Positions 31,802 to 42,197 of a DNA stretch of 46,889 nt are shown here, one piece after another. Source of the stretch: a bacterium. Its GTDB lineage: Bacteria > UBA8248. The translations under genes were made by a program, and so were the position numbers. The notes beneath the pieces were generated by a model that made no database searches, had not been told where the DNA came from, and was given only the letters and a program-made list of their open reading frames with translations. The stretch's first letter is position 1. Each line of letters opens with the position of its first letter. The DNA lies in the NCBI GenBank assembly GCA_965213685.1, contig CBDBZY010000019.1, positions 1-46,889 on the forward strand, in the 5' to 3' direction.

Positions 31802-32475
31802 CCTTTCGGGTCGGCGGCCTGGAAGCGGGGGGAGATGAAGCCGTCGCCATCCACGGGTGCGTCCACCGCATATTCTACAACACCGCCCGCGCAGCGCACA
31901 CGCCCCTCGGCGATGAGCCGCACCGCCAGCGGGTATAGGCGGTGCTCGTAGCGGAGGATTCTCTCCGAGAGTGCTCGCTCATCATCCCCGGGGCGCACCG
32001 GCACGGCGGCCTGCAGGATGATCGGCCCAGTATCCACCCCCTCATCCACGAAGTGCACCGTGCAGCCCGCCACCCGCACGCCTGCGTCCAGGGCCTGTCT
32101 TTGCGCGCGCAGGCCGGGGAAACTCGGCAGAAGCGAGGGATGGATGTTGATGATTTTGCCCCGGAAGCGGTCCACGAACCCGGGAGGCAGGATGCGCATG
32201 AAGCCGGCACAGCAGATGAGGCCGATTCCGCAACGCTCGATCTCCTCGCCCATCCTTTGGTAAAACCCGTCCTCCCGGGGGTTGAGGCGCCTGTGCCGTA
32301 TGCCCGCCGCCGCCGCGCGCGCAAGCGCATGCGCCTTTTTCCTGTCGCTGAGGACGAGTGCGACTTCGGCTGGAAAATCCGCGTCCCGCTCCGCGTCGAT
32401 GAGCGCCTGAAGATTCGACCCGCGGCCCGAGGCCAGAACGCCCAGGCGCAAGCGCGTTCGAGGGGACATTCTCAT
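31798..32475 (-). CDS. purN: phosphoribosylglycinamide formyltransferase
   Basis: Motifs GVLASGRGSNLQAL, AGFMRIL, INIHPSLLPSFPG and GCTVHFVDEGVDTGPII. Confidence 0.96.
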   Translation of the reverse strand: MRMSPRTRLRLGVLASGRGSNLQALIDAERDADFPAEVALVLSDRKKAHALARAAAAGIRHRRLNPREDGFYQRMGEEIERCGIGLICCAGFMRILPPGFVDRFRGKIINIHPSLLPSFPGLRAQRQALDAGVRVAGCTVHFVDEGVDTGPIILQAAVPVRPGDDERALSERILRYEHRLYPLAVRLIAEGRVRCAGGVVEYAVDAPVDGDGFISPRFQAADPKG

Positions 32476-33525
32476 ACGCCCGCGATGACGACGGGCGGCT
32501 CGCCCCGCGGCCGCTGAACGACCTCGCCTACGATCAGGGCTTCTTCGCCCGCCGCCGCCAGGAGATCGCGCAGAGATTCCGCCCGACCCGATCTGGCGAA
32601 GAAGACGAGACCCAGACCCATGTTAAAGGTGCGGTACATCTCCGCCGGCGCGACCGGCCCCAGCTCCTGAATCAACGGGAATATCGCCGGAAGGGGCCAT
32701 TTCTCGGGACGCAACACGGCCTGCAGGCCGTCGGGCACCATGCGGCGCACGTTTCCGGGAATGCCGCCCCCCGTGATGTGGGCGACCCCGCTCATTCCCC
32801 GCTCGCCTCGGACGGCGGCCACGCCGTTCGCATAGATGCGGGTCGGCGCCAGGAACGCATCCTCCACCGAGAGGCGGAGCCTTTGCGCCGCGGCCTCCAT
32901 CTTTTCCCTGGAATCGAATATCTTTCGCAACAGGGAGTAGCCGTTGCTGTGAACGCCCGAAGAGGGAAGCGCGAGGATGACGTCGCCCGCCTCCGCGGAG
33001 GGCGCATCGTCCAGCCGCCGCCGCTCGACCACGCCTACGGCGAATCCCGCCAGGTCATACGCCCCGGGCGCATACAGATCGGGCATCTCGGCCGTCTCGC
33101 CCCCGATGAGGGCGCACCCCGCCTCCCGGCAGCCCCGAGCGATCCCGGATACGACATCCGCCAGCACCCCCCGATCGATCCTGCCCGTCGCGATGTAGTC
33201 CAGAAAAAAAAGAGGCTCCGCCCCCGTGGTCAGGATGTCGTTGACGCACATGGCCACCAAATCGACCCCGACGGCGCCATGGCGCCCGAGCCGCTGGGCC
33301 AAAAGCAGTTTCGTGCCGACGCCGTCCGTCCCGGCGACGAGAACCGGGTCTGCGTAATCCCCGCCCAGGCGGAACAGGCCCGCAAAATCCGCCCTCCCCC
33401 TCCAGGATGCGGCCGCCCTGGCGCTCGTGGGTGGACTTCACCGCGCGGGAGATGGCGCGAACGAAACTCTCGCCCGCATCCACGTCGACGCCCGCGCCAC
33501 GGTATGTCACATGGGGATCAGGCAA
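32472..33525 (-). CDS. purM: phosphoribosylformylglycinamidine cyclo-ligase (+1 frameshift at ~33385)
   Basis: [15 protein letters not shown], then the other frame gives [41 protein letters not shown] and TFNMG. Confidence 0.93.
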
Positions 33526-33575
33526 AGGAGGGGTTCCATGAGGGAGCCGGCGGAGTGATTCGGCAAAAAACAAGG

Positions 33576-35593
33576 TCAGCCATGGGCCTCCACCAGCTTC
33601 CTGACCAGGGCGACATTGTGCCGGTGACCGCTTCTCTCGGCGACCACCCTTCCCAGGACGGGACGACCCCAGCAGATACAGATCCCCCATCACGTCGAGA
33701 ATTTTATGGCGAACGAACTCGTCGGGGAAGCGCAACTCTGTGTTCAGAACACGCTCTCCATCCACGAGGATCACGTTGTCCCAAGCGCCCGCCCTCGGCC
33801 AGGCCCATGTTCTCGAGCGACTTGAGTTCGGAGACGAGGCCGAACGTGCGCGCCGGCGCGATTTCCTTCTGGAAGCCCGACGCATTCCGGTGCGCATACA
33901 GGTAGCGTTGCCTGCCAATCGGCTCGGGGTAATCCATCAGATACGAGATCGACAAGGAATCCGCAGGCTCGATGCGAATATACCCCTCCCCGGAGCCCGG
34001 CTCGCCCACCTCATGGGCTTCATCCAACCGCAACTCCTCGATTTTTTCCTGTTGCTCCTCGATCCCGGCCTCTTCCAGCAGGCGGCAAAACTCCCCCGCC
34101 GATCCGTCCATGACGGGGACTTCCTCTCCAATTTTCACGAGGATGTTGCTGACCCGGTAGGCGTGCAGCGCGCTCATGAGATGCTCTATCGTCCGGGCCG
34201 TCACGGCCCCGTCGCGCAGGTTCGTCGCATGGTTCGTACCGTCCACGAAATCGACGCGCGCACGCACGGTCTCGGAACTCGTCAGGTTGCCGAACCGGAC
34301 CCCGCTTCCCGGCGGCAGGGGCTCGACGATCAGCCCGGTTTTCAGCCCGGAGTGCAGCCCCCGGCCATGCAGCACAACGCTCCTGGCGATGCTCCGCTGG
34401 CTCGCCCTCCCGGGCGTCGAGGCCGGCGGTGCGGCGGGCTTCACCTCGACCGCCTTTGCTGGAGGCCGCAAGGCCGCCTCGCTTTCCGAACCATCCAAGC
34501 GGGGAGAAGAAGCCGCGCGCATCGCATACGGGAAGTGCTCGACGCGCACCTCCTTTCCGCGGGACGAATACGCCGCTTTGGCGACCACGCCCTTGAGTTC
34601 GGCGACATTGCCCGGCCAGTCATATTTATCCAGAAGCGCGATGGCGTTCTCCGAGAACTCCTTCTCCTCGCCGGCCGATTCGGCGCACTCGTCCAAAAAT
34701 TTGTTCGCCAGCAACAAGATGTCCCCCTTGCGTTCGCGCAAGGGCGGCAAATGTATCAGGGTGGCGCCCGTTTTCTCGGAGAGTAGCCGCACGGATGCCT
34801 TGTCTTCGGGAGTACCCGCATGATTGAGAGACGCTATCAAGCGCATCGAATCACTCGCATGCCCCAGAAGGCGATGGATACACTCCTCGCGCTCCGCAGC
34901 GGGCAACCCCTCCAGGCCATCGAGATATACCGTCCCCCGAAACGAGGCGGGCACCAGATGCGCTAGCGCCTTTGCCCATTCGTCTTTCTCTGAAAGCGGC
35001 GGCAAGGAGCGGCAATGGAGCGGCATGAACCCCCGCTCTTTGGCGACGCCATGCATGTGTATCATCCGCACGACAAAGCGCTTGCCCGTGCCCCGCTCCC
35101 CGGCGACCAGCGTGGGGGCCGCATCCTTCATGGCACTCCGGATGGCTTTGCGGGTCCTGAGCACCTCCCTTCCGCCGCCCTCCAGCATCACCTCGACGCC
35201 CTCGCCCGTCGTGCGTTCCTTCTCGCGCTTCGTTTGCACGGCGGAATCCACCACGCGCAGCACCGTGTCGAGGGAGAGGGGCTTTTCAATAAAATCAAAA
35301 GCGCCCAGCTTTGTCGCGGCCACGGCGGTCTCGATGTTGCCGTGGCCCGACATGACGACGACCTCGGTGTCCGCGTTGGATTCCTTGACCGTCTGCAAGG
35401 TTTTGATTCCGTCAATCCCCGGCATCCACACATCAAGCAAGACCACGTCCGGGGTTTCCGTCCGAAGCAGATGAAGCGCAATGTCCCCGGACTCCGCCCG
35501 CACGACGCGGTAGCCCTCGTCATGGAGGACGTTCTCCAGGCTCGTGAGTATTTCGCGCTCATCGTCGACGATGAGAACGTGTCCCTTATCCAA
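33576..35593 (-). CDS. lpxC: NtrX-like receiver + degenerate AAA+ domain fused to UDP-3-O-acyl-GlcNAc deacetylase LpxC (two +1 frameshifts near the 3' end, ~33780 and ~33668)
   Basis: REC motifs [18 protein letters not shown] and FIEKP. AAA-like motifs GERGTGK, LPPLRER and WPGNV. LpxC motifs [63 protein letters not shown] and SGHRHN. Confidence 0.9.
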
Positions 35594-37851
35594 TGGCGGC
35601 CGTCCTTTGTCTCTCGGGCGGGATGTCCGCGGCAGACGCCAGCGGCAGCGTGACGCGAAAAACGGAGCCCGCCGGCTGGTTGTCGCGCACGCCTATCGTT
35701 CCGTTGTGATCGGTCACGATGCGGTGGCAAATCGCCAGGCCCAGGCCGGACCCCCCTGTTCTTGGTCGAAAAATAGGGGGAAAACACGCGGACTTTCATA
35801 TCCTCCGATATCCCCTGTCCCTGGTCGGTGACTTCGACGACTATCATATTCTCATCTGCGTCGCTCCACGCCTGCAGGCTTACCTCGCCCTCGGCCTCCT
35901 GGGACTCGAACGCATTCTCCAGCAAATTGATGAACACGCGCTGCAGCTGCTCCGGATCGGCCAGGACAACCGCATTCTCGGCGTGGAGCTGAACGGCCAG
36001 TTTCACATTTCCCTTCCCGTCCCGATACAGATTCGCCACTTCCTCCAGAAGCGGAACAAACTCGCAAAGCCGCAGCCTCGGTTCCGGCATTCTCGCGAAA
36101 CGGCGAAACTCGTTCACCATTCCCTCCAGGCTCCTCACCTGATTGATGATGGTCTCCGTACACGCGTCGAGTATTTCGGGAAAATCATAGGCCCCGCTCT
36201 CAAATTTCCTCCGCATTCGCTGGGCGGACAGCTGGATGGGCGTCAGCGGATTCTTGATCTCGTGCGCGAGGCCCTGGGCCACCTCGCGCCACGCCGCTAT
36301 TTTCTGGGCGCGTATGAGGGCCGTCATGTCGTCAAACACGACGAGGGTGCCGAGCCTGTTGCCCTCCGCGCTCTTCAGCATGGTCAGGCTCGCTCGCAGC
36401 GTCAGGATGCGGCCATCGATCATGATCTCTATTTGCTCCGAGGTGTTCTCCAGGTTCCGCTCTCTCAGGGAGCGCATCAACTGCAGGACGGGCTCGATGT
36501 GCGCGCTTTGGAAAACCTCGCCGAACATCCGGCCAATGGCGCCGCGAGGAGGGATGTGCAGCAGCGCCCCGGCGGCTTTGTTGAGAGTGGTGATCCGCCC
36601 CTGCCGATTGATCGCTACGACGCCGGCGCCGATGTTCTCGAGCATCGCTTCCGTATATCTGCGCCTTCTGTCGATTTCAGCGTTGGAGTGGCGCAGGGTT
36701 TCCGAGGATTCTTCGATTTTCTTCTTGTTGGCCAGCAATTCCTCCGTCATGCTGTTGAACGCGCCGACCAGGATGCCCACCTCCCCGTCCGCCCGCGATT
36801 CGACGCGATGCTCGAGGTCTCCGCCCGACACCGCGCGGGTGGCCTCCGCCAACTTTTCGATGGGCACCGTGATGCTGCTGGCGAGATAGAGGCCGAACCA
36901 CGTCGCGGCGAACAAAATGAGCAGCGCGACCACAAAAAAGGTGATCATGTAGCTCGCCTTGAGCAGAACCTTGGACATTTCCACCTCCTTGTAATCCACA
37001 AAGGAGTCCGATATGCCCTGTATCCTGTCCGCGAGCCGCTCCGACACGTGCCTGGACGCAACGATGAAACCCACCACTTGTTTCTGAATCCGCAAGGGCG
37101 CCAGGCCGTGGATGACGTCGCCCTTCTCCCTGTGCTCCACGCTCGAGCGCGACTCCCCCTCCAGCACCTGCTCCACGTATCCCGTCAGGGGAGAGAAAAG
37201 CGCGCCCTGTCCCAGTCCCGAACGCCTCACCGAGGCGATTTCCTTTCGGTTTCCGTCGTAGAGCTGGACGCTGTCCACCCACAGGTTCTTTCTTTCCGCC
37301 TCCAGTATTTCTTGAATCTTTCGGGGGGTTCGCATCGCCTCCGGGTGCGCCCTCTCCAGGGTGAGCGCAAGCCGACTCGCGCTGAACAGCATGTTTCTTT
37401 CCGCCTCGCGATAATACGTCTGCGCCACCTCGAACGAGCCTTTGAGCGCATTCTCCACGCTCACGTTGAACAATGCGTTGAAACTCTTGGTGATCAGGCC
37501 GCTGGCCACCAGGAAAAGAGCCACCGTCGGGATGAGCGCGAATCCGACAAAAGCCAGGACGAGCTTTAATTGCAGGCGCGAGCCACCGGCGCTGCGTTTC
37601 CTCCCGTAATACAGGCGCATCAGATTCTTCGCCACCAGGAGGAGAACCACCATGAGGAGGATGATGCTGAGGTTCACGAGCGCGAAGACGACCACGTTGT
37701 TGAGGAGGGGAATTCCCGGCTCCGGATCCTTGAAGTAGAGCCAGGCCGCGAGCGACAGGGTAGCGATGCCGATCAAGGCGATGAGAAGGCGGATCAGGTG
37801 CTTTCGGCGGCGCGCGGCGATTTCTTCATGACTCAGGCGCACTGGATGCAA
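35586..37851 (-). CDS. NtrY-like multi-TM HAMP/PAS sensor histidine kinase (+1 frameshift at ~35752)
   Basis: TM segments, periplasmic domain, HAMP, PAS, AWREVAQGLAHEIKNPLTPIQLSA, N-box NLLENA, DQGQGI and PYFSTK. The corrected GSGLGLAICHRIV..GSVFRVTLP stops at 35586, overlapping the regulator start. Confidence 0.9.
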
Positions 37852-37854
37852 GAC

Positions 37855-38460
37855 TCACATTCCTTTCGAGCCGAATGTTACGGAATAGCTCCAATCGGAT
37901 TTCTTCGCCATGAAGGCAAGCAGGAGGTTAAAGGGGAAGACAAGATTCACAGAGCCCGACTGCGCCCTGATCCTGACATAGTATCGCTCATGGGGAGACA
38001 ACGCCCCGACAGAGGCGATGGGCACGCCATTCAGCTCGCGCATCCAGTCGATCATCTCGTCTTTGCTCCTGGTCGTTTTTCTCTCGAGGCTCTTCGCATC
38101 CTTCTCGACCACAAAGGTATAGGTCTTTTTCAACGCATTATATTGCACCTGGTGATGCAGCCGCCGGGAGGAGACTTCCACATCATAGATCAGCTTGCGG
38201 GATCGGAGGAGGGCCATATCGAAGACGAAGCGGACCATCACCCCGCTATGGATGGTCTCCAGCAGTTTCGGGGAGAACGCACCCCGGAGCGAAGCAAAAA
38301 CGAGCAGCTCCCCGCTTTTCTCCACCACGACAATATCTTGTATGTGAATTCCGCTTTTCCCGCCCGGAGCGGCGAGTGCCGGCCCGGCCATCACGCAGAG
38401 GAGGCAGGCGGAGAGGGCGAAACTCCATGGAGCAAGCATTTTCTGCGTGTGATGGCGCAT
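37855..38460 (-). CDS. DUF4390-like exported protein
   Basis: Signal peptide, IHSGVMVRFVF, QYNALKKTY and YYVRIRA. This is the typical gene upstream of ntrYX-like pairs. Confidence 0.7.
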   Translation of the reverse strand: MRHHTQKMLAPWSFALSACLLCVMAGPALAAPGGKSGIHIQDIVVVEKSGELLVFASLRGAFSPKLLETIHSGVMVRFVFDMALLRSRKLIYDVEVSSRRLHHQVQYNALKKTYTFVVEKDAKSLERKTTRSKDEMIDWMRELNGVPIASVGALSPHERYYVRIRAQSGSVNLVFPFNLLLAFMAKKSDWSYSVTFGSKGM

Positions 38461-38599
38461 CAGCTCACCTTGGCTTCCAGGCCCTGGCGCTGACGGACGA
38501 CGGGGAAAGAACATGGCGCTATCCTGTCTTCCCGCCTCCCGGCGCGCGCCTTCGGACGCCGCCTCCGCCCCGAAGCGAGGAGGCGTCCCTCCATTTTTC

Positions 38600-41287
38600 T
38601 TATTCCCCCTTGCCCTCCGCCATCCTCTGGAGCGCATACAGGGTATCGAGCGCCTCGCGCGGCGTCATCGCATCCGGATCGACGCCTTTCAGGGCCTCTT
38701 CGACCCTCGAGGGCGCGCGCGCGAACAGGGGCAGCTGCCCGTTCTGACGCCCCCCGCCCGGGAGCGGGTCCCCCCCACCGGCAGCGGACGACGCAGCCTC
38801 CGCACCCTCCTCAAACCGGGAGAGCAGCACCCTCGCCCGGCGGATGACCTCATCGGGAAGTCCCGCCAGCCTCCCCACGTGAATGCCGTAGCTCCTGTCG
38901 CAGCTGCCGTCGGTCACCTTTCTAAGGAACACGACGTCATCGCCCCACTCGCGCACCTCGACCGTCAGGTTCCGCACGCGCGGGAGCTTTTTCGGGAGTT
39001 CGGCCAGTTCATGGTAATGCGTCGCAAACAGGGTTCTCGCCCCCTGGCCGGCCTCCCGGTGGAGATACTCCACGATCGACCACGCGATGCTCACCCCGTC
39101 ATAGGTGCTCGTCCCCCGCCCCACCTCGTCCAGGACGATGAAGCTTCTCGGCGTCGCCTCCCTCAGTATGGCGGCCGTCTCCACCATCTCCACCATGAAG
39201 GTGCTTTGTCCCTCCAGAAGCCGGTCATGCGCACCGACCCGGGTGAACACCCTGTCGACCAAGGCAACCCTCGCGCTCCTGGCGGGGACGAAGCCGCCCA
39301 TCTGCGCCATCAGCACGATGAGCGCCGACTGGCGCAGATACGTGGATTTGCCGGCCATGTTCGGCCCCGTGACGATGAGTATCTGGCGCTCGCCGCCGAT
39401 GGCCAAATCGTTCGGCACAAAGGGGACGCCGGGATGCTCCGCCTCCATGACGGGATGCCTGCCCTCCACGATTTCCAGATGCGGGGAATCCGTGATTTCC
39501 GGGCGAACGTATCCGTGCTTCCGCGCCACGAGCGCCAGGGAGAGGACAGCGTCCAGAAGCGCGACCCGCTCCGCGGCGGCGAGTATGCGCCCGGCCTGCT
39601 TCGATATTTTCGCGCGCAGGACGCCGAAAAGCATGAATTCGCGCTGGCGGGCCTTCTCCTCCGCGCCGAGGATGTCATCCTCCATCTTCTTCAGCTCGGA
39701 GGTGATGTAGCGTTCCGCCGAAACGAGGGTCTGCTTGCGCGTGTACTCTGCCGGCACCGCGTCGCTCAGGCGCTTGGTGATCTCGAGGTAGTATCCAAAA
39801 ACGCGGTTGAACCCGATTTTGACAGGCAGCCCCGTCCTTTGCCTCTCCCCGGCCTCATAGTTTTTCAGCCACGTATCGCCCTCGCGCTGCGCCTCTCGCA
39901 GTTGCGCGAGTTCGCCGTCGTAGCCGGCGCGGAACATGCCGCCCTCGCGAATCGAAACCGGCGGCTCCTCCACGATGGCGTTTTGCAACTCGCGCGCCAC
40001 ATCCTCCAGAGAATCCCATCCCGACAAGGCGGAGCGGAACAACTCCGTGTCCGCCTCCGCTATGGCGGTTCGGACTTCCGGAAGCATGGACAGAGAGGCG
40101 CCTAGCGCCCGCAAATCCCTGGCGTTCGCGGTTTGAGAGCCCACGCGCCCCAGGAGGCGCTCGATATCCTGTATGGGCCGGATGGCGTCCTGGAGCGTCT
40201 CCTGGAACCCGGGATCCTCCACGAGTTCCTCCACGGATGCGGCGCGATGCGCAATAGCTTTTTTCTGAATCAGCGGCGAGAGCACCCATTTCTTGAGCAG
40301 GCGCCCCCCCATGCCCGTGAGCGTCTCGTCCAGCAGGGCGAGCAAGGTGCCCTTCCTCCCGTGATCCGCCGCCGAGCGGATGATCTCCAGGTTCCGCAGC
40401 GTGGCGGCGTCGAGAATCATGGTGTCGGAAAGTCGGGAGAAGGAGACGGGCTTGAGGTGGGGAAAATCGCCAGGCTGGTTTTCCTGGAGATAGGCCATGA
40501 CGCCCACGGCGGCGTTCGCCGCCGCCGGATTCGCCAGCACGTCCGCCTCATCGGGAAATATGGTCTCCGCCTGACGGAGGTCGAACGTTTCGCGAAAGGT
40601 GGCGGCCGGTCTTTTTTCCACATGAATCCCCAGCGCCTCGATCCTGCCTTGCAGTGCGGCGGACGGCGAGAAGGTGTCCGGCAAGACGATTTCGCGGGGA
40701 GAAATCCTCTCCAGCTGGTTGCAGACGAGCGTCTCGGCGGCGTCGCCCGCGGCCTGGGTCGCGCAAAACTCGCCGGTCGAGCTGTCGAGCCACGCCATCC
40801 CCCAAAGCCCGCCTCCCCCGCCCCTGGATACGGCGATCCCGGCCAGATACTGGGATTCCTTGCCGTCCAGCAGTTCGAGGTCGGCGATGGAGGTGCCGGG
40901 AGTCAGGACGCGCGTCACCTCGCGCTTCACGACCCCCTTGCTCTCTCCCGCATCCTCCACCTGCTCGCATATCGCGACCCTGTAGCCCGCCTTCAGCAGG
41001 CGCCCGCAATACGAGGACGCCGAATGACAGGGCACGCCGCACATCGGGATGGGCCCCTTCTCGTCGCTTTGGCGCGACGTCAGCGCCAGCTCCAGGGCTT
41101 TCGCCGCGAGCGTCGCGTCCTCGTAGAACATTTCAAAGAAATCGCCCAGCTGAAAAAAGAGTATCGCGTCCGGATAACGTCTTTTCATCTCCAGATACTG
41201 CCGCATCGCGGGGGATGGGCCGCGGGACTTCCCCCGCGACGCGCTCTTTTGCGCCCGCGGAGCGCTTTGTTGTGGGGGAGGAGACAT
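38600..41287 (-). CDS. mutS: DNA mismatch repair protein MutS
   Basis: SPAMRQY..FFQLGDFFEMF, PMCGVP, TGPNMAGKSTY, STFMVEM, DEVGRGTST and SYGIHVGRLAGLP. Confidence 0.96.
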   Translation of the reverse strand: MSPPPQQSAPRAQKSASRGKSRGPSPAMRQYLEMKRRYPDAILFFQLGDFFEMFYEDATLAAKALELALTSRQSDEKGPIPMCGVPCHSASSYCGRLLKAGYRVAICEQVEDAGESKGVVKREVTRVLTPGTSIADLELLDGKESQYLAGIAVSRGGGGGLWGMAWLDSSTGEFCATQAAGDAAETLVCNQLERISPREIVLPDTFSPSAALQGRIEALGIHVEKRPAATFRETFDLRQAETIFPDEADVLANPAAANAAVGVMAYLQENQPGDFPHLKPVSFSRLSDTMILDAATLRNLEIIRSAADHGRKGTLLALLDETLTGMGGRLLKKWVLSPLIQKKAIAHRAASVEELVEDPGFQETLQDAIRPIQDIERLLGRVGSQTANARDLRALGASLSMLPEVRTAIAEADTELFRSALSGWDSLEDVARELQNAIVEEPPVSIREGGMFRAGYDGELAQLREAQREGDTWLKNYEAGERQRTGLPVKIGFNRVFGYYLEITKRLSDAVPAEYTRKQTLVSAERYITSELKKMEDDILGAEEKARQREFMLFGVLRAKISKQAGRILAAAERVALLDAVLSLALVARKHGYVRPEITDSPHLEIVEGRHPVMEAEHPGVPFVPNDLAIGGERQILIVTGPNMAGKSTYLRQSALIVLMAQMGGFVPARSARVALVDRVFTRVGAHDRLLEGQSTFMVEMVETAAILREATPRSFIVLDEVGRGTSTYDGVSIAWSIVEYLHREAGQGARTLFATHYHELAELPKKLPRVRNLTVEVREWGDDVVFLRKVTDGSCDRSYGIHVGRLAGLPDEVIRRARVLLSRFEEGAEAASSAAGGGDPLPGGGRQNGQLPLFARAPSRVEEALKGVDPDAMTPREALDTLYALQRMAEGKGE

Positions 41288-41289
41288 CC

Positions 41290-41667
41290 CTACTCCGCCC
41301 TGGATTCGCCGGCGGACGGGCGCGGCTGGGCGGCGGAATCGGTTCGCGGCGCGGCTTCCACAGGTTCGGGATTCCCCGCCGCGAGCAGCCTGCCGCCTTT
41401 CTCGCGCGCTTCGTCGAGGCTGCTCTCCAGCGTCTTGACCTCGCGCTGGAGTTTTCCGATCTGGCTCCGGAACTTCAGCCTGTCGAACGCCCCGCCAAAC
41501 CACGCCGCCATGAACCCGCAGGCAAACACCGCCAGCAGAACGTAGAAAAGAGGGAGGCTGACGCTGCCCCGATAGTAGGCGACCGTCACCGGCTTCATGT
41601 TGACGACGCCGAAGCTGGAGATCGCCAATGCCAGAATCAAGCCGACGATGAGTCGCAAGCTGCCCAT
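41290..41667 (-). CDS. LapA-family (DUF1049) small membrane protein
   Basis: Two TM segments (..FGVVNMKPVTV.., LPLFYVLLAVFACGF) followed by a coiled coil. Confidence 0.7.
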   Translation of the reverse strand: MGSLRLIVGLILALAISSFGVVNMKPVTVAYYRGSVSLPLFYVLLAVFACGFMAAWFGGAFDRLKFRSQIGKLQREVKTLESSLDEAREKGGRLLAAGNPEPVEAAPRTDSAAQPRPSAGESRAE

Positions 41668-41690
41668 ATCGCCACCGAATGGAATGCGTT

Positions 41691-42197
41691 TTAGACTTCA
41701 AAATCCGGACGGAGTTGGTTGTAGGTCGTCTCCAGGCTGCCGGGAATCACCCGCACGTCCCCGAGAACGGGCATGAGGTTGTGGTCCCCCTCCCAGCGCG
41801 GGACGACGTGCATGTGCAGATGCCCGGCGATGCCGGCGCCCGCGCTTCTTCCCAGATTCAGCCCCACGTTGAAGCCGTGCGCTTTCAGGCGCTTTCGCAA
41901 GACGCCCACGCATTTCTGGGAGAATGCAAAAATCTCCCGGCATTCCTCCTCGCCGAGACCCTCGTAGTCCTCGACGTGGCGAATCGGCACCACCATGAGG
42001 TGGCCGTTCGTATAGGGGTACCTGTTCATCACGACATACGCCCACTCGCCCCTCTGGAGAATCAGGTTCTCCTCCCCGTCCTCTCCGTCAAGCAGGCCGC
42101 AAAACACGCAGGCGGAGGGCGCCCCTCCGTCTCCTTCCCCGGCGACGGCATCGCTCGACACATACTCTCCGCGCCACGGCGCCCATATCCTTTCCAT
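41691..42197 (-). CDS. HIT-family hydrolase (Ap4A phosphorylase-like)
   Basis: Motifs IWAPWR, CVFC, NRYPYTNGHLMVVP and GAGIAGHLHMHVVPRW. Confidence 0.9.
   Translation of the reverse strand: MERIWAPWRGEYVSSDAVAGEGDGGAPSACVFCGLLDGEDGEENLILQRGEWAYVVMNRYPYTNGHLMVVPIRHVEDYEGLGEEECREIFAFSQKCVGVLRKRLKAHGFNVGLNLGRSAGAGIAGHLHMHVVPRWEGDHNLMPVLGDVRVIPGSLETTYNQLRPDFEV

Follow-up and report, generated by a model that had tools for sequence, protein, structure and literature searches.

In the bacterium that we studied (GTDB lineage Bacteria; UBA8248), LpxC belongs to the same protein as the receiver domain of a two-component system. We analyzed a window of 46,889 nucleotides, which is positions 1 to 46,889 of contig CBDBZY010000019.1 in assembly GCA_965213685.1. 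It encodes a receiver, a degenerate AAA+ domain, a proline- and alanine-rich linker, and LpxC, in that order, as one protein that is real and intact. LpxC is the committing enzyme of lipid A synthesis and the control point of the pathway, and it is a much-pursued antibiotic target. The fusion points to direct control of outer-membrane synthesis by a signal.

According to the portion of PMC12444477 that we draw on, the regulation of LpxC is understood mainly in enterobacteria, by way of proteolysis that involves FtsH, LapB, and YejM, and is open elsewhere. The first-pass annotation of this DNA knew of no characterized example of such a fusion. Similarly, a literature search, with subscription journals and supplements outside its scope, found no paper that describes a fusion of a receiver or of NtrX to LpxC, and it found no experimental work on any member of the family.

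The receiver and LpxC share one reading frame

From a TTG start codon at 35593, one frame continues without a stop to 33785, and the open reading frame as it stands in the assembly (33704..35593) encodes 629 amino acids. The remainder of LpxC is split between the two other frames (WDNVILV...DLYLLG at 33783-33667, and RPVLGRV...VEAHG followed by a stop at 33665-33576). We compared the assembly to contigs that were derived from sequencing reads, leaving out runs X1 and X2 (0.07 of the sampled words each). Single bases at 33783 and 33667 in lpxC and at 33396 in purM are absent from the contigs of runs X3, X5, and X6, and a single base at 35751 in the kinase gene is absent from the contigs of those runs and also of X7, which is from a second study. 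So the assembly has four single-base insertions within 2.7 kb, and all four places are short homopolymer runs. Because the bases are missing from the read-derived contigs and the sites are homopolymers, both frame breaks in LpxC are insertion errors of the assembly. Without the two inserted bases, the gene encodes (2018 - 2)/3 - 1 = 671 amino acids (Table 1).

The frame of the upstream kinase, whose C-terminal piece lies within the open reading frame 35586..35717, reaches the TAA at 35588-35586 only after the extra base at 35751 is removed. This stop then overlaps the TTG start of the fusion (35593-35591) within TTGGATAA. The first-pass annotation had claimed the continuous frame, the corrected length of about 671 amino acids, and the overlap between kinase and fusion, and all of these hold. 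It had also proposed a look at the reads across 34400-34520. A 21.7-kb contig from X5 and a contig from X7 (the other study) span 34281-34672 without gaps, and they confirm a junction that lacks the helix-turn-helix (HTH) domain.

Table 1. Features in and around the fused gene
Feature	Coordinates	Strand	Remarks
purM (AIR synthase)	32472..33530	-	Pfam AIRS and AIRS_C; downstream of the fusion; broken by the inserted base at 33396
ntrX-like::lpxC fused gene	33576..35593	-	Product of 671 aa after correction
LpxC domain, about 274 aa	33576..34399	-	Split in the assembly by insertions near 33784 and 33666
Pro/Ala-rich linker	34400..34510	-	Occupies the site of the Fis-type HTH of relatives
Degenerate AAA+ domain with lid	34502..35173	-	Pfam Sigma54_activ_2 and AAA_lid_14
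Receiver (REC) with long last helix	35213..35593	-	Pfam Response_reg, residues 6-114
NtrY-type sensor histidine kinase gene	35586..37851	-	About 754 aa after removing one extra base near 35751
DUF4390 protein gene	37855..38637	-	Pfam DUF4390, 96.2 bits (cut-off 27); directly upstream of the kinase gene

The fusion occurs in three forms

The first-pass annotation had suggested looking for the fusion in independent genomes, and also for relatives with separate ntrX and lpxC. Among 51 genomes from the phylum, 50 hold one lpxC locus, and none has a demonstrably stand-alone lpxC. In 37 of the 50 loci, lpxC is within an open frame of 641-757 amino acids; nine more are in frames of 432-538 amino acids, of which eight read as receiver-LpxC; and the remaining four are cut by contig ends or are unresolved. 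Elsewhere in the public genomes, 77 of 80 loci have a single fused frame. The related fusions are in records that are labelled as Nitrospinota, Thermodesulfobacteriota, Acidobacteriota, Binatota, Nitrospirota, and others. Three rows that look like stand-alone LpxC (P0157, P0177, and P0162) branch among the fused sequences of the tree. The first two sit on short contigs (902 nt and 925 nt) and are probably incomplete copies of fused genes; P0162 is an LpxC of 292 amino acids on an 89-kb contig.

The family has three forms: receiver-AAA+-HTH-LpxC, receiver-AAA+-LpxC (as in the window), and a short form with just receiver-LpxC. No part other than the receiver and LpxC is common to all three. Of 109 long forms, 97 keep the HTH and 12 lack it, and the short forms (n = 61) have no DNA-binding domain at all. 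The first-pass annotation had proposed that LpxC takes the place of the Fis-type HTH, and as a history of the family this is not supported: 20 of 22 genomes from the same genus, as well as most of the long forms, encode receiver-AAA+-HTH-LpxC. This implies that LpxC was appended to a complete NtrX and that the HTH was lost later. The window's lineage lost about 40 residues of HTH after that fusion. At least 5-7 switches between long and short forms are needed on the LpxC tree, so the AAA+/HTH module was lost repeatedly with the receiver retained.

At loci with at least 1500 nt of flanking sequence, an NtrY-type kinase is directly upstream in 65 of 106 cases (36 of 51 long forms and 29 of 55 short forms), and Pfam confirmed an adjoining kinase in five loci from other phyla. 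No such kinase adjoins the other 15 of the 51 long forms and 26 of the 55 short forms, so not every locus has an obvious partner for the fusion.

The regulatory half resembles a truncated NtrX

The receiver domain is a strong match to Response_reg (106.3 bits, with a cut-off of 30.2). All of 58 long forms have D10, D11, D54, and K104, and all of 61 short forms have these four residues together with S82. The last helix of the receiver extends over residues 108-130 in a model of a long-form relative and over residues 108-127 in that of a short form.

Sigma54_activat or Sigma54_activ_2, together with AAA_lid_14, cover residues 141-364. The AAA+ domain keeps its Walker A motif (GERGTGKR), but the Walker B motif is YLDGLE, with glycine at the site of the catalytic glutamate. 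By a count of motifs, just 6 of 109 long forms have this glutamate. We predict that the window's AAA+ domain binds nucleotides but is dead as an ATPase. We also considered whether the protein might be an activator of sigma 54, like NtrC, and rejected this: the match to Sigma54_activat is limited to positions 7-62 of the 168 in the profile, the Walker B motif lacks its glutamate, there is no GAFTGA loop in the window's AAA+ domain, and in L004, a close relative, the residues that align with the GAFTGA of PDB 4l4u do not resemble it.

The absence of the Fis-type HTH from the window's protein, as claimed at first pass, was borne out. HTH_8 does not match the protein at E ≤ 0.01, and no HTH is encoded in any frame of 34400-34520. 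L004 does have an HTH_8 (26.3 bits). The best solved match for its N-terminal 421 residues is 5m7n_A (E = 5.5e-46), which aligns over residues 5-421, from the receiver through the HTH. The solved NtrX structures are PDB 5m7n, 5m7o, and 5m7p, which we take to be Brucella abortus NtrX. L004 thus has the NtrX layout in full, and by comparison the N-terminal part of the window's protein reads as a derived and truncated NtrX module.

The linker varies in length and sequence across the family (roughly 25-55 residues in the short forms), which makes a rigid signalling helix less likely. We obtained AlphaFold single-chain models for a long form of 710 amino acids and a short form of 443 amino acids, and neither predicts a fixed interface between the receiver and LpxC. 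In both models, the domains are confident and their arrangement is not (pTM 0.51 for the long form and 0.66 for the short form). In the short-form model, the linker at residues 129-166 has pLDDT of 33-37.

The LpxC half appears to be a complete enzyme

Pfam's LpxC (cut-off 27) matches the window in two pieces: 172.7 bits for residues 399-604 (profile positions 1-203) and 54.6 bits in the shifted frame (profile positions 199-244). In an intact relative, it scores 274.5 bits. The motifs TIEH, HKxxD, and SGHRHN are all present, and every motif that the first-pass annotation named (DD and the phosphorylated aspartate of the receiver; TIEH, HKxxD..D, and SGH of LpxC) is in the window's translation. 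We take the zinc ligands to be the histidine of TIEH and the histidine and aspartate of HKxxD, with the glutamate of TIEH and the histidine of SGH as catalytic residues, as in work on the E. coli and Aquifex enzymes. None of 58 long forms and 61 short forms deviates at the E-H of TIEH, the H-K-x-x-D-x-x-x-D, or the G-H of SGH. The modelled LpxC domain of a short-form relative superimposes on the LpxC of P. aeruginosa and Aquifex with TM scores (target) of 0.81-0.93 and an rmsd of about 2 Å. We predict that the window's LpxC domain is catalytically complete.

Methionine is found at the site where a separate LpxC would start in 20 of 102 long forms and 7 of 61 short forms, and there is no conserved internal methionine. 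After SGH, the long and short forms that were counted have a tail of 7-30 residues, and in most of them it is 13-18 residues long.

Neighboring genes and the rest of the genome

The genes run in the order DUF4390, ntrY-like kinase, and ntrX-like::lpxC fusion. In other bacteria, a DUF4390 gene is often found just ahead of ntrY. The kinase has NtrY_N (37.1 bits, with a cut-off of 23.2), HAMP, PAS, HisKA, and HATPase_c domains, and it is intact in relatives.

The first-pass annotation had raised the question of a second, stand-alone lpxC. None was found: this genome, which is 94% complete, has no lpxC besides the fused gene. lpxB and lpxK are present. Because this is the sole lpxC and all of its catalytic residues are invariant, it is presumably at least the working enzyme. 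The genome also has other NtrC-like regulators (8 matches, for example C43:145270-146472). The zinc ribbon of LapB (PF18073) has no match in the genome, but this model has just 28 positions and also matches control genomes that lack LPS.

Comparison with known systems

The closest known system is NtrY/NtrX. NtrX also has a receiver, an AAA+ domain without GAFTGA, and a Fis-type HTH, as seen in the match of L004 to 5m7n_A, and the kinase has the domain layout of NtrY (NtrY_N-HAMP-PAS-HisKA-HATPase_c). Unlike NtrX, the fusion has LpxC within the same polypeptide, and its Walker B motif is YLDGLE instead of the YLDEVA of 5m7n. Furthermore, with the HTH lost, the window's protein cannot act on DNA by way of this domain.

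NtrYX has already been linked to lpxC in two alphaproteobacteria. In Rhodobacter sphaeroides, NtrYX represses the transcription of lpxC, and a mutant has 8.8-fold more mRNA and more LPS (the relevant part of PMC7240162); a passage in PMC12444477 states that NtrYX represses lpxC in Caulobacter as well. The published description of DVU2931-DVU2934 in Desulfovibrio vulgaris Hildenborough, insofar as we draw on it, gives another case of a two-component response regulator that is dedicated to lpxC, which was the single DAP-chip target of DVU2934, and in Syntrophobacter fumaroxidans, lpxC is beside the orthologous operon (Rajeev et al. 2011, PMC3333781). There, however, the regulator and LpxC are separate genes and, as described, the control is transcriptional.

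The short forms share the layout of CheB: receiver, flexible linker, and hydrolase. In CheB, the unphosphorylated receiver covers the active site and phosphorylation opens it, and by analogy, the short forms may work in the same way. But the output domains are not homologous, no interface between the receiver and LpxC is predicted (pTM 0.66), and the long forms have a dead AAA+ module as an extra. LpxC is also one domain of a larger protein in the bifunctional LpxC-FabZ fusions that exist in some Bacteroidota and Chlorobiota, but the partner there is a C-terminal metabolic enzyme rather than an N-terminal signalling module. Finally, in the FtsH/LapB/YejM system of E. coli, proteolytic control is by way of a C-terminal degron (per the portion of PMC12444477 used here), in contrast to the short tail past SGH in this family.

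How might the receiver act on LpxC?

The conservation of the fusion is a sign of selection for linkage; it does not give the nature of the coupling. Our best explanation, which as a whole we consider reasonably probable, is that phosphorylation by the NtrY-type kinase controls LpxC at the protein level. The membrane kinase would phosphorylate Asp54 of the receiver, and this would alter the receiver's self-association by way of the alpha4-beta5-alpha5 face and the long alpha5 helix that is kept in all forms. The dead AAA+ domain, where present, would serve as a scaffold. The change in self-association would then change the amount of active LpxC, so that the flux to lipid A would be set at the protein level. 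Functional coupling of the receiver to LpxC predicts a real fusion that is the sole lpxC, pairing with an NtrY-type kinase, and conservation of both the phosphorylation pocket and the catalytic residues, and this is what we found, throughout the phylum and outside it. More specifically, the receiver or scaffold might occlude or release the active site or the acyl tunnel of LpxC, in the manner of CheB; this is possible, but we are somewhat doubtful. Going by the repression of lpxC by NtrYX in Rhodobacter and Caulobacter, we guess that the phosphorylated form lowers the output of LpxC. In the long forms that have the HTH (97 of 109), control of transcription may still be the main output.

Alternatively, the amount of LpxC could be controlled rather than its catalysis. 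The receiver, alone or together with the dead AAA+ scaffold, would then be recognized by a protease or would dock to the membrane kinase depending on its phosphorylation, and this would replace control by FtsH/LapB. The short tail implies that there is no long C-terminal degron, the short-form model has a flexible and disordered linker, and the genome lacks a match to the (nonspecific) model of LapB's zinc ribbon. Also, proteolysis of LpxC is described for several lineages in the part of PMC12444477 that we used. On the other hand, no gene for a protease or an adaptor is linked to the fusion in the loci that we read. We think that this explanation is unlikely.

Another idea is that an NtrX-type repressor of lpxC was fused to its own target, which would give 1:1 production and tight negative autoregulation. 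The receiver would then control only the binding of DNA, and LpxC would be constitutive. This would fit with the Fis-type HTH between AAA+ and LpxC in most long forms (including the 26.3-bit HTH_8 of L004), with the transcriptional repression by NtrYX in two alphaproteobacteria and the binding of DVU2934 to just the lpxC promoter (both as given in the parts of those papers cited above), and with the lack of an interface between domains in the AlphaFold models. But the window's protein and 12 of 109 long forms lack the HTH, and in the 61 short forms, the phospho-acceptor pocket is invariant even though there is no DNA-binding domain. Under this idea, the receiver would not be expected to remain intact in proteins where LpxC is its only possible target, which counts against it, and we consider it rather improbable.

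It is quite improbable that the LpxC moiety is an input, that is, that the binding of substrate or product tunes the phosphorylation of the receiver, and that the protein is a phosphate sink or a metabolite sensor for NtrY's signalling to some other regulator. This is conceivable for any fusion of an enzyme to a receiver, and there are other NtrC-like regulators in the genome, but this is the sole LpxC, with every catalytic residue invariant, and it is the fused gene that is translationally coupled to the kinase by the start/stop overlap. Lastly, the assembly does contain four inserted bases, but we reject the idea that an indel or a collapsed stretch merged separate ntrX and lpxC genes, which has almost no chance of being correct given the gap-free contigs from four runs in two studies and the same single frame in 37 genomes from the phylum and at 77 of 80 loci elsewhere.

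Implications

If phosphorylation controls LpxC at the protein level, then the loss of AAA+ and HTH with the receiver kept would be a clear case of a transcription factor that became a regulator of an enzyme. The fusion also acts as a Rosetta stone, as it places the NtrY signal and LpxC in one circuit in these lineages. It is independent support for the link between NtrYX and lpxC, which had hitherto been seen only as a change in transcripts in two alphaproteobacteria. The short form should be a simple object to test: it is one soluble protein of about 430 amino acids, with an established enzyme assay and a single aspartate. How non-proteobacterial diderms set the flux to LPS becomes a directly testable question.

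More broadly, it is plausible, although we would not count on it, that NtrX and LpxC were fused once and that the fusion is the standard way to balance outer-membrane synthesis in several phyla besides the Proteobacteria (those whose labels are given above). NtrY, perhaps with DUF4390, would read the status of the envelope or of LPS, and the transcriptional link between NtrYX and lpxC in alphaproteobacteria would be this same circuit without the fusion.

Results

A phospho-receiver and LpxC in one polypeptide

The minus-strand gene at 33576..35593 joins, by its sequence, a fully equipped phospho-receiver and the genome's sole, catalytically complete LpxC in one polypeptide, and this gene is translationally coupled behind an NtrY-type sensor kinase. 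The TAA stop of the kinase and the TTG start of the fusion overlap within TTGGATAA, as the first-pass annotation had read them. The fusion's Sigma54_activat match covers profile positions 7-62 of 168 only, and a Pfam search found no Fis-type HTH in the window's fusion protein.

Features of the fused gene and its neighbors
Feature	Position	Strand	Remarks
Receiver domain	residues 6-114 of fusion	-	Pfam, 106 bits
Sigma-54-type AAA+ core and lid	residues 141-364 of fusion	-	Pfam
LpxC	residues 399-604 of fusion	-	Pfam, 172.7 bits
Fusion ORF as assembled	35593 (TTG) to 33704	-	629 aa open frame
LpxC continuation, WDNVILV...DLYLLG	33783-33667	-	second frame
LpxC end, RPVLGRV...VEAHG-stop	33665-33576	-	third frame
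NtrY-type kinase	upstream of fusion	-	NtrY_N, HAMP, PAS, HisKA, HATPase_c (Pfam)
DUF4390 protein gene	37855-38637	-	directly upstream of kinase gene; 96 bits
mutS ORF	38600-41701	-	1033 aa as listed; MutS domain I starts at residue 164

It had been proposed that two downstream +1 errors hide a product of about 671 amino acids. We aligned Logan contigs from the reads of four public sequencing runs to window positions 33300-36000. One base is absent at each of 33396, 33667, 33783, and 35751 in the contigs from X3, X5, and X6, which belong to the same study; a contig from X7, a run from a different study, spans 35751 and lacks the base there too. These are the frame-change sites of purM, LpxC (twice), and the kinase, and all four, within 2.7 kb, sit in short homopolymer runs; frame breaks disrupt purM downstream and the kinase upstream just as they do LpxC. 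Because the bases are missing from read-derived contigs, we conclude that the frame breaks are assembly insertions, and without them the product is 671 amino acids long. The window may derive from X3, which is nearly identical to it; X5 and X6 are strain variants with 22 single-letter differences from the window. The fusion junction (34400-34520) is spanned without gaps in both studies, by a 21.7-kb contig from X5 and by a 392-nt contig from X7 (34281-34672), and no HTH was found in any frame of that stretch. The fusion as first described is thus confirmed as a whole, including the predicted frame repairs. Elsewhere in the genome (G000), lpxB is likewise divided between two frames (G000:C12:6830-7772), and many of the seeming frameshifts and pseudogenes in G000 are probably errors.

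A search of this genome (7.97 Mb in 71 contigs, 94% complete) for a second, stand-alone lpxC gave no match besides the fusion; lpxB and lpxK were both found. The 22 other genomes of the genus are smaller (2.9-4.6 Mb), and G000 has a contamination rating of 3.68% and one lpxC locus. In betaproteobacteria, too, a DUF4390 gene commonly adjoins ntrYX, so the DUF4390 protein would be a candidate partner of the sensor kinase. The true start of mutS probably lies well inside the listed ORF rather than at its TTG.

Conservation of the modules

Relatives come in a long form, receiver-AAA+-(HTH)-LpxC, and a short form, receiver-linker-LpxC. Across 58 long forms, receiver residues D10, D11, D54, and K104 are invariant, as are G165, E166, G168, and G170 of Walker A (K171 almost so) and T507, E509, H510, H668, K669, D672, D676, G694, and H695 of LpxC. 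In 61 short forms, the same LpxC residues are invariant together with D10, D11, D54, S82, and K104.

The AAA+ module has fared differently. Of 109 distinct long forms, 107-109 keep Walker A and 79 keep the Asp of Walker B, but just 6 retain the catalytic Glu that follows this Asp; in its place are Gly (49 forms), Ala (15), Asp (12), Asn (12), and Ser (8). GAFTGA is absent in the alignment with solved structures. The best solved match to the N-terminal 421 residues, from the receiver through the HTH, is 5m7n_A (E = 5.5e-46; entry title "Nitrogen assimilation regulatory protein"), which we take to be Brucella NtrX; its YLDEVA corresponds to YLDGLE in the fusion. On these grounds the module is NtrX-like; it is probably still nucleotide-binding, and we do not expect it to hydrolyze nucleotides. 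The HTH is missing in 12 of the 109 long forms, as in the window, which leaves a spacer of 49-82 residues instead of 99-113. Few of the proteins have a methionine around the beginning of the LpxC domain (20 of 102 long forms, 7 of 61 short ones), so no route to LpxC alone is conserved. The tail beyond SGH is mostly 13-18 residues.

Relatives within and beyond the phylum

Of 51 genomes of the window's phylum that we searched with the LpxC profile, 50 gave a match, at one locus each: 37 in open frames of 641-757 amino acids, 9 in frames of 432-538, and 4 that are cut by a contig end or of unassigned form (G003, G032, G046, and G052). G025 (93% complete) had no LpxC match, and its congener G026 (genus g7) has the long fusion; G025 reflects either an assembly gap or a loss. 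Of the 22 other genomes in the window's genus, 20 have the long frame; the frame of G009 is short, and that of G003 ends at a contig edge. The long genes that we inspected encode 705-711 amino acids, arranged as receiver, AAA+, Fis-type HTH, and LpxC (in the close relative L004, HTH_8 reaches 26.3 bits, with a cut-off of 22). Compared with them, the window's protein lacks about 40 residues, precisely at the position of the HTH. G043, G045, G048, G049, G050, G051, G053, and G009 encode a receiver, an unconserved linker, and LpxC in 432-458 amino acids. The earlier statement that LpxC takes the place of the Fis-type HTH therefore describes the window's protein correctly but not the history of the family, as relatives carry both. 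Since the long relatives keep the HTH, LpxC was attached to the end of a complete NtrX-like regulator, and the HTH, alone or jointly with the AAA+ module, was lost afterwards.

In a word-indexed protein search, all 120 of the best 120 matches belong to the LpxC family and 116 to the receiver family; matches are labeled "UDP-3-O-acyl-N-acetylglucosamine deacetylase" at NCBI and "NtrX" at JGI. A scan of one genome per species gave at least 592 stretches, 590 of which encode a relative, and we retained the best 80. Independent assemblies bear out the architecture: receiver and LpxC lie within a single open frame in 77 of these 80 loci (25 long, 52 short), and of the other three, two end at a contig edge and one has no in-frame receiver. 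Among the best 80, long forms are labeled Nitrospinota (Nitrospina, Nitromaritima), Thermodesulfobacteriota (Syntrophaceae, Desulfomonile), and Nitrospirota, and short forms Acidobacteriota (Thermoanaerobaculia, Holophagae), Binatota, Thermodesulfovibrionia, Chrysiogenota, Omnitrophota, Syntrophobacter, Syntrophorhabdus, and "Deltaproteobacteria bacterium." The fusion also occurs in records labeled "Promethearchaeota archaeon" and "Patescibacteria group bacterium" (loci L051 and L110), but these labels are probably binning errors rather than hosts; the L051 contig is 3163 nt, with a title coverage of 0.34. Among the best 150 of the 50%-identity representatives, about 20 clusters have the long form and about 30 the short form; unfused NtrX-like proteins (33-38% identity) and unfused LpxC (38-49%) rank below the fusions.

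We built a FastTree phylogeny of 117 LpxC domains, thinned of near-copies from 173 rows, with the window's LpxC entered with X at both frame breaks. A branch of 0.55 (support 99) sets off all of the fused domains, along with four "stand-alone" rows, two of which (on contigs of about 900 nt) are probably fragments. A protein of stand-alone size, P0162 (292 amino acids, on an 89-kb contig), is nested in a short receiver-LpxC clade; it may stem from a secondary fission, or its start may be miscalled or its frame shifted. There are at least 5-7 switches between long and short forms on well-supported branches, and short forms are nested among long ones at no fewer than 3 places in the window's family; the window clusters with P0002, P0038, P0041, L019, and the short P0054. 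Because the outgroup is thin (10 rows), the tree permits a single origin rather than demonstrating one. Whatever lies between receiver and LpxC has been repeatedly stripped, the receiver never.

AlphaFold2 models of a 710-residue long relative (58 sequences; mean pLDDT 82, pTM 0.51) have a well-formed receiver (1-130), AAA+ module (142-361), HTH (377-420), and LpxC (435-710) with low-confidence connections. For a 443-residue short form (61 sequences; pLDDT 85, pTM 0.66), the linker at 129-166 has a pLDDT of 33-37, and the LpxC domain aligns with solved LpxC structures at TM 0.81-0.93; a structure search with this model found no solved chain that covers both receiver and LpxC. Given the low-confidence linkers, the models offer no fixed receiver-LpxC interface, and the tether looks flexible.

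Linkage to the kinase

We scored loci whose flank reaches 1500 nt or more. The gene immediately upstream, on the same strand, encodes an NtrY-like kinase in 36 of 51 long-form loci and in 29 of 55 short-form ones; in the window's phylum, every locus with enough flank has it. Pfam found NtrY_N-HAMP-PAS-HisKA-HATPase_c upstream of L048, L053, L072, L074, and L108; five other upstream ORFs that we submitted are different genes or spurious frames. The adjoining kinase is missing in marine Nitrospinaceae, in Syntrophaceae/Desulfomonile, and in most Acidobacteriota loci.

Discussion

The interpretation offered in the first-pass annotation finds partial support. We lean toward the view that NtrY would phosphorylate Asp54 of the receiver and that the phosphorylated receiver would thereby alter LpxC output at the level of the protein. 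As to how, our tentative favorite is that catalysis might be gated by phospho-dependent self-association or docking of the receiver, by analogy with the way CheB works. Control of the turnover or localization of LpxC comes next, and we consider it rather improbable. We doubt still more that the fusion serves purely to co-express a constitutive LpxC enzyme with the regulator, which would suit the long forms that bear an HTH but is at odds with the window's HTH-less protein and with the short forms.

Separate regulators of lpxC are known. The available text of a 2025 review of lipid A regulation (PMC12444477) has NtrYX inhibiting lpxC transcription in R. sphaeroides and C. crescentus, and the words "fusion," "fused," and "response regulator" are absent from that text. 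In the accessible parts of Lemmer et al. 2020 (PMC7240162), the lpxC transcript is 8.8-fold up and there is more LPS without NtrYX, with no NtrX site at lpxC. According to excerpts of Rajeev et al. 2011 (PMC3333781), lpxC is the single target of the D. vulgaris regulator DVU2934, whose orthologues occur in Geobacter lovleyi and Acidobacterium capsulatum; in Syntrophobacter fumaroxidans lpxC adjoins the DVU2934-orthologous operon. Other papers repeat the link between DVU2934 and lpxC. In L077, a short-form locus from an uncultured Syntrophobacter sp., the gap to the kinase is 535 versus about 150 elsewhere; this may be the same layout as in S. fumaroxidans (PMC3333781).

Our literature search found no published description of a receiver-LpxC fusion, so the fusion, which is widespread, is as far as we have found undescribed in print. 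It is an NtrX-descended response regulator with an enzymatic output. Response regulators with enzymatic outputs are already known; what is new is that the output is LpxC.
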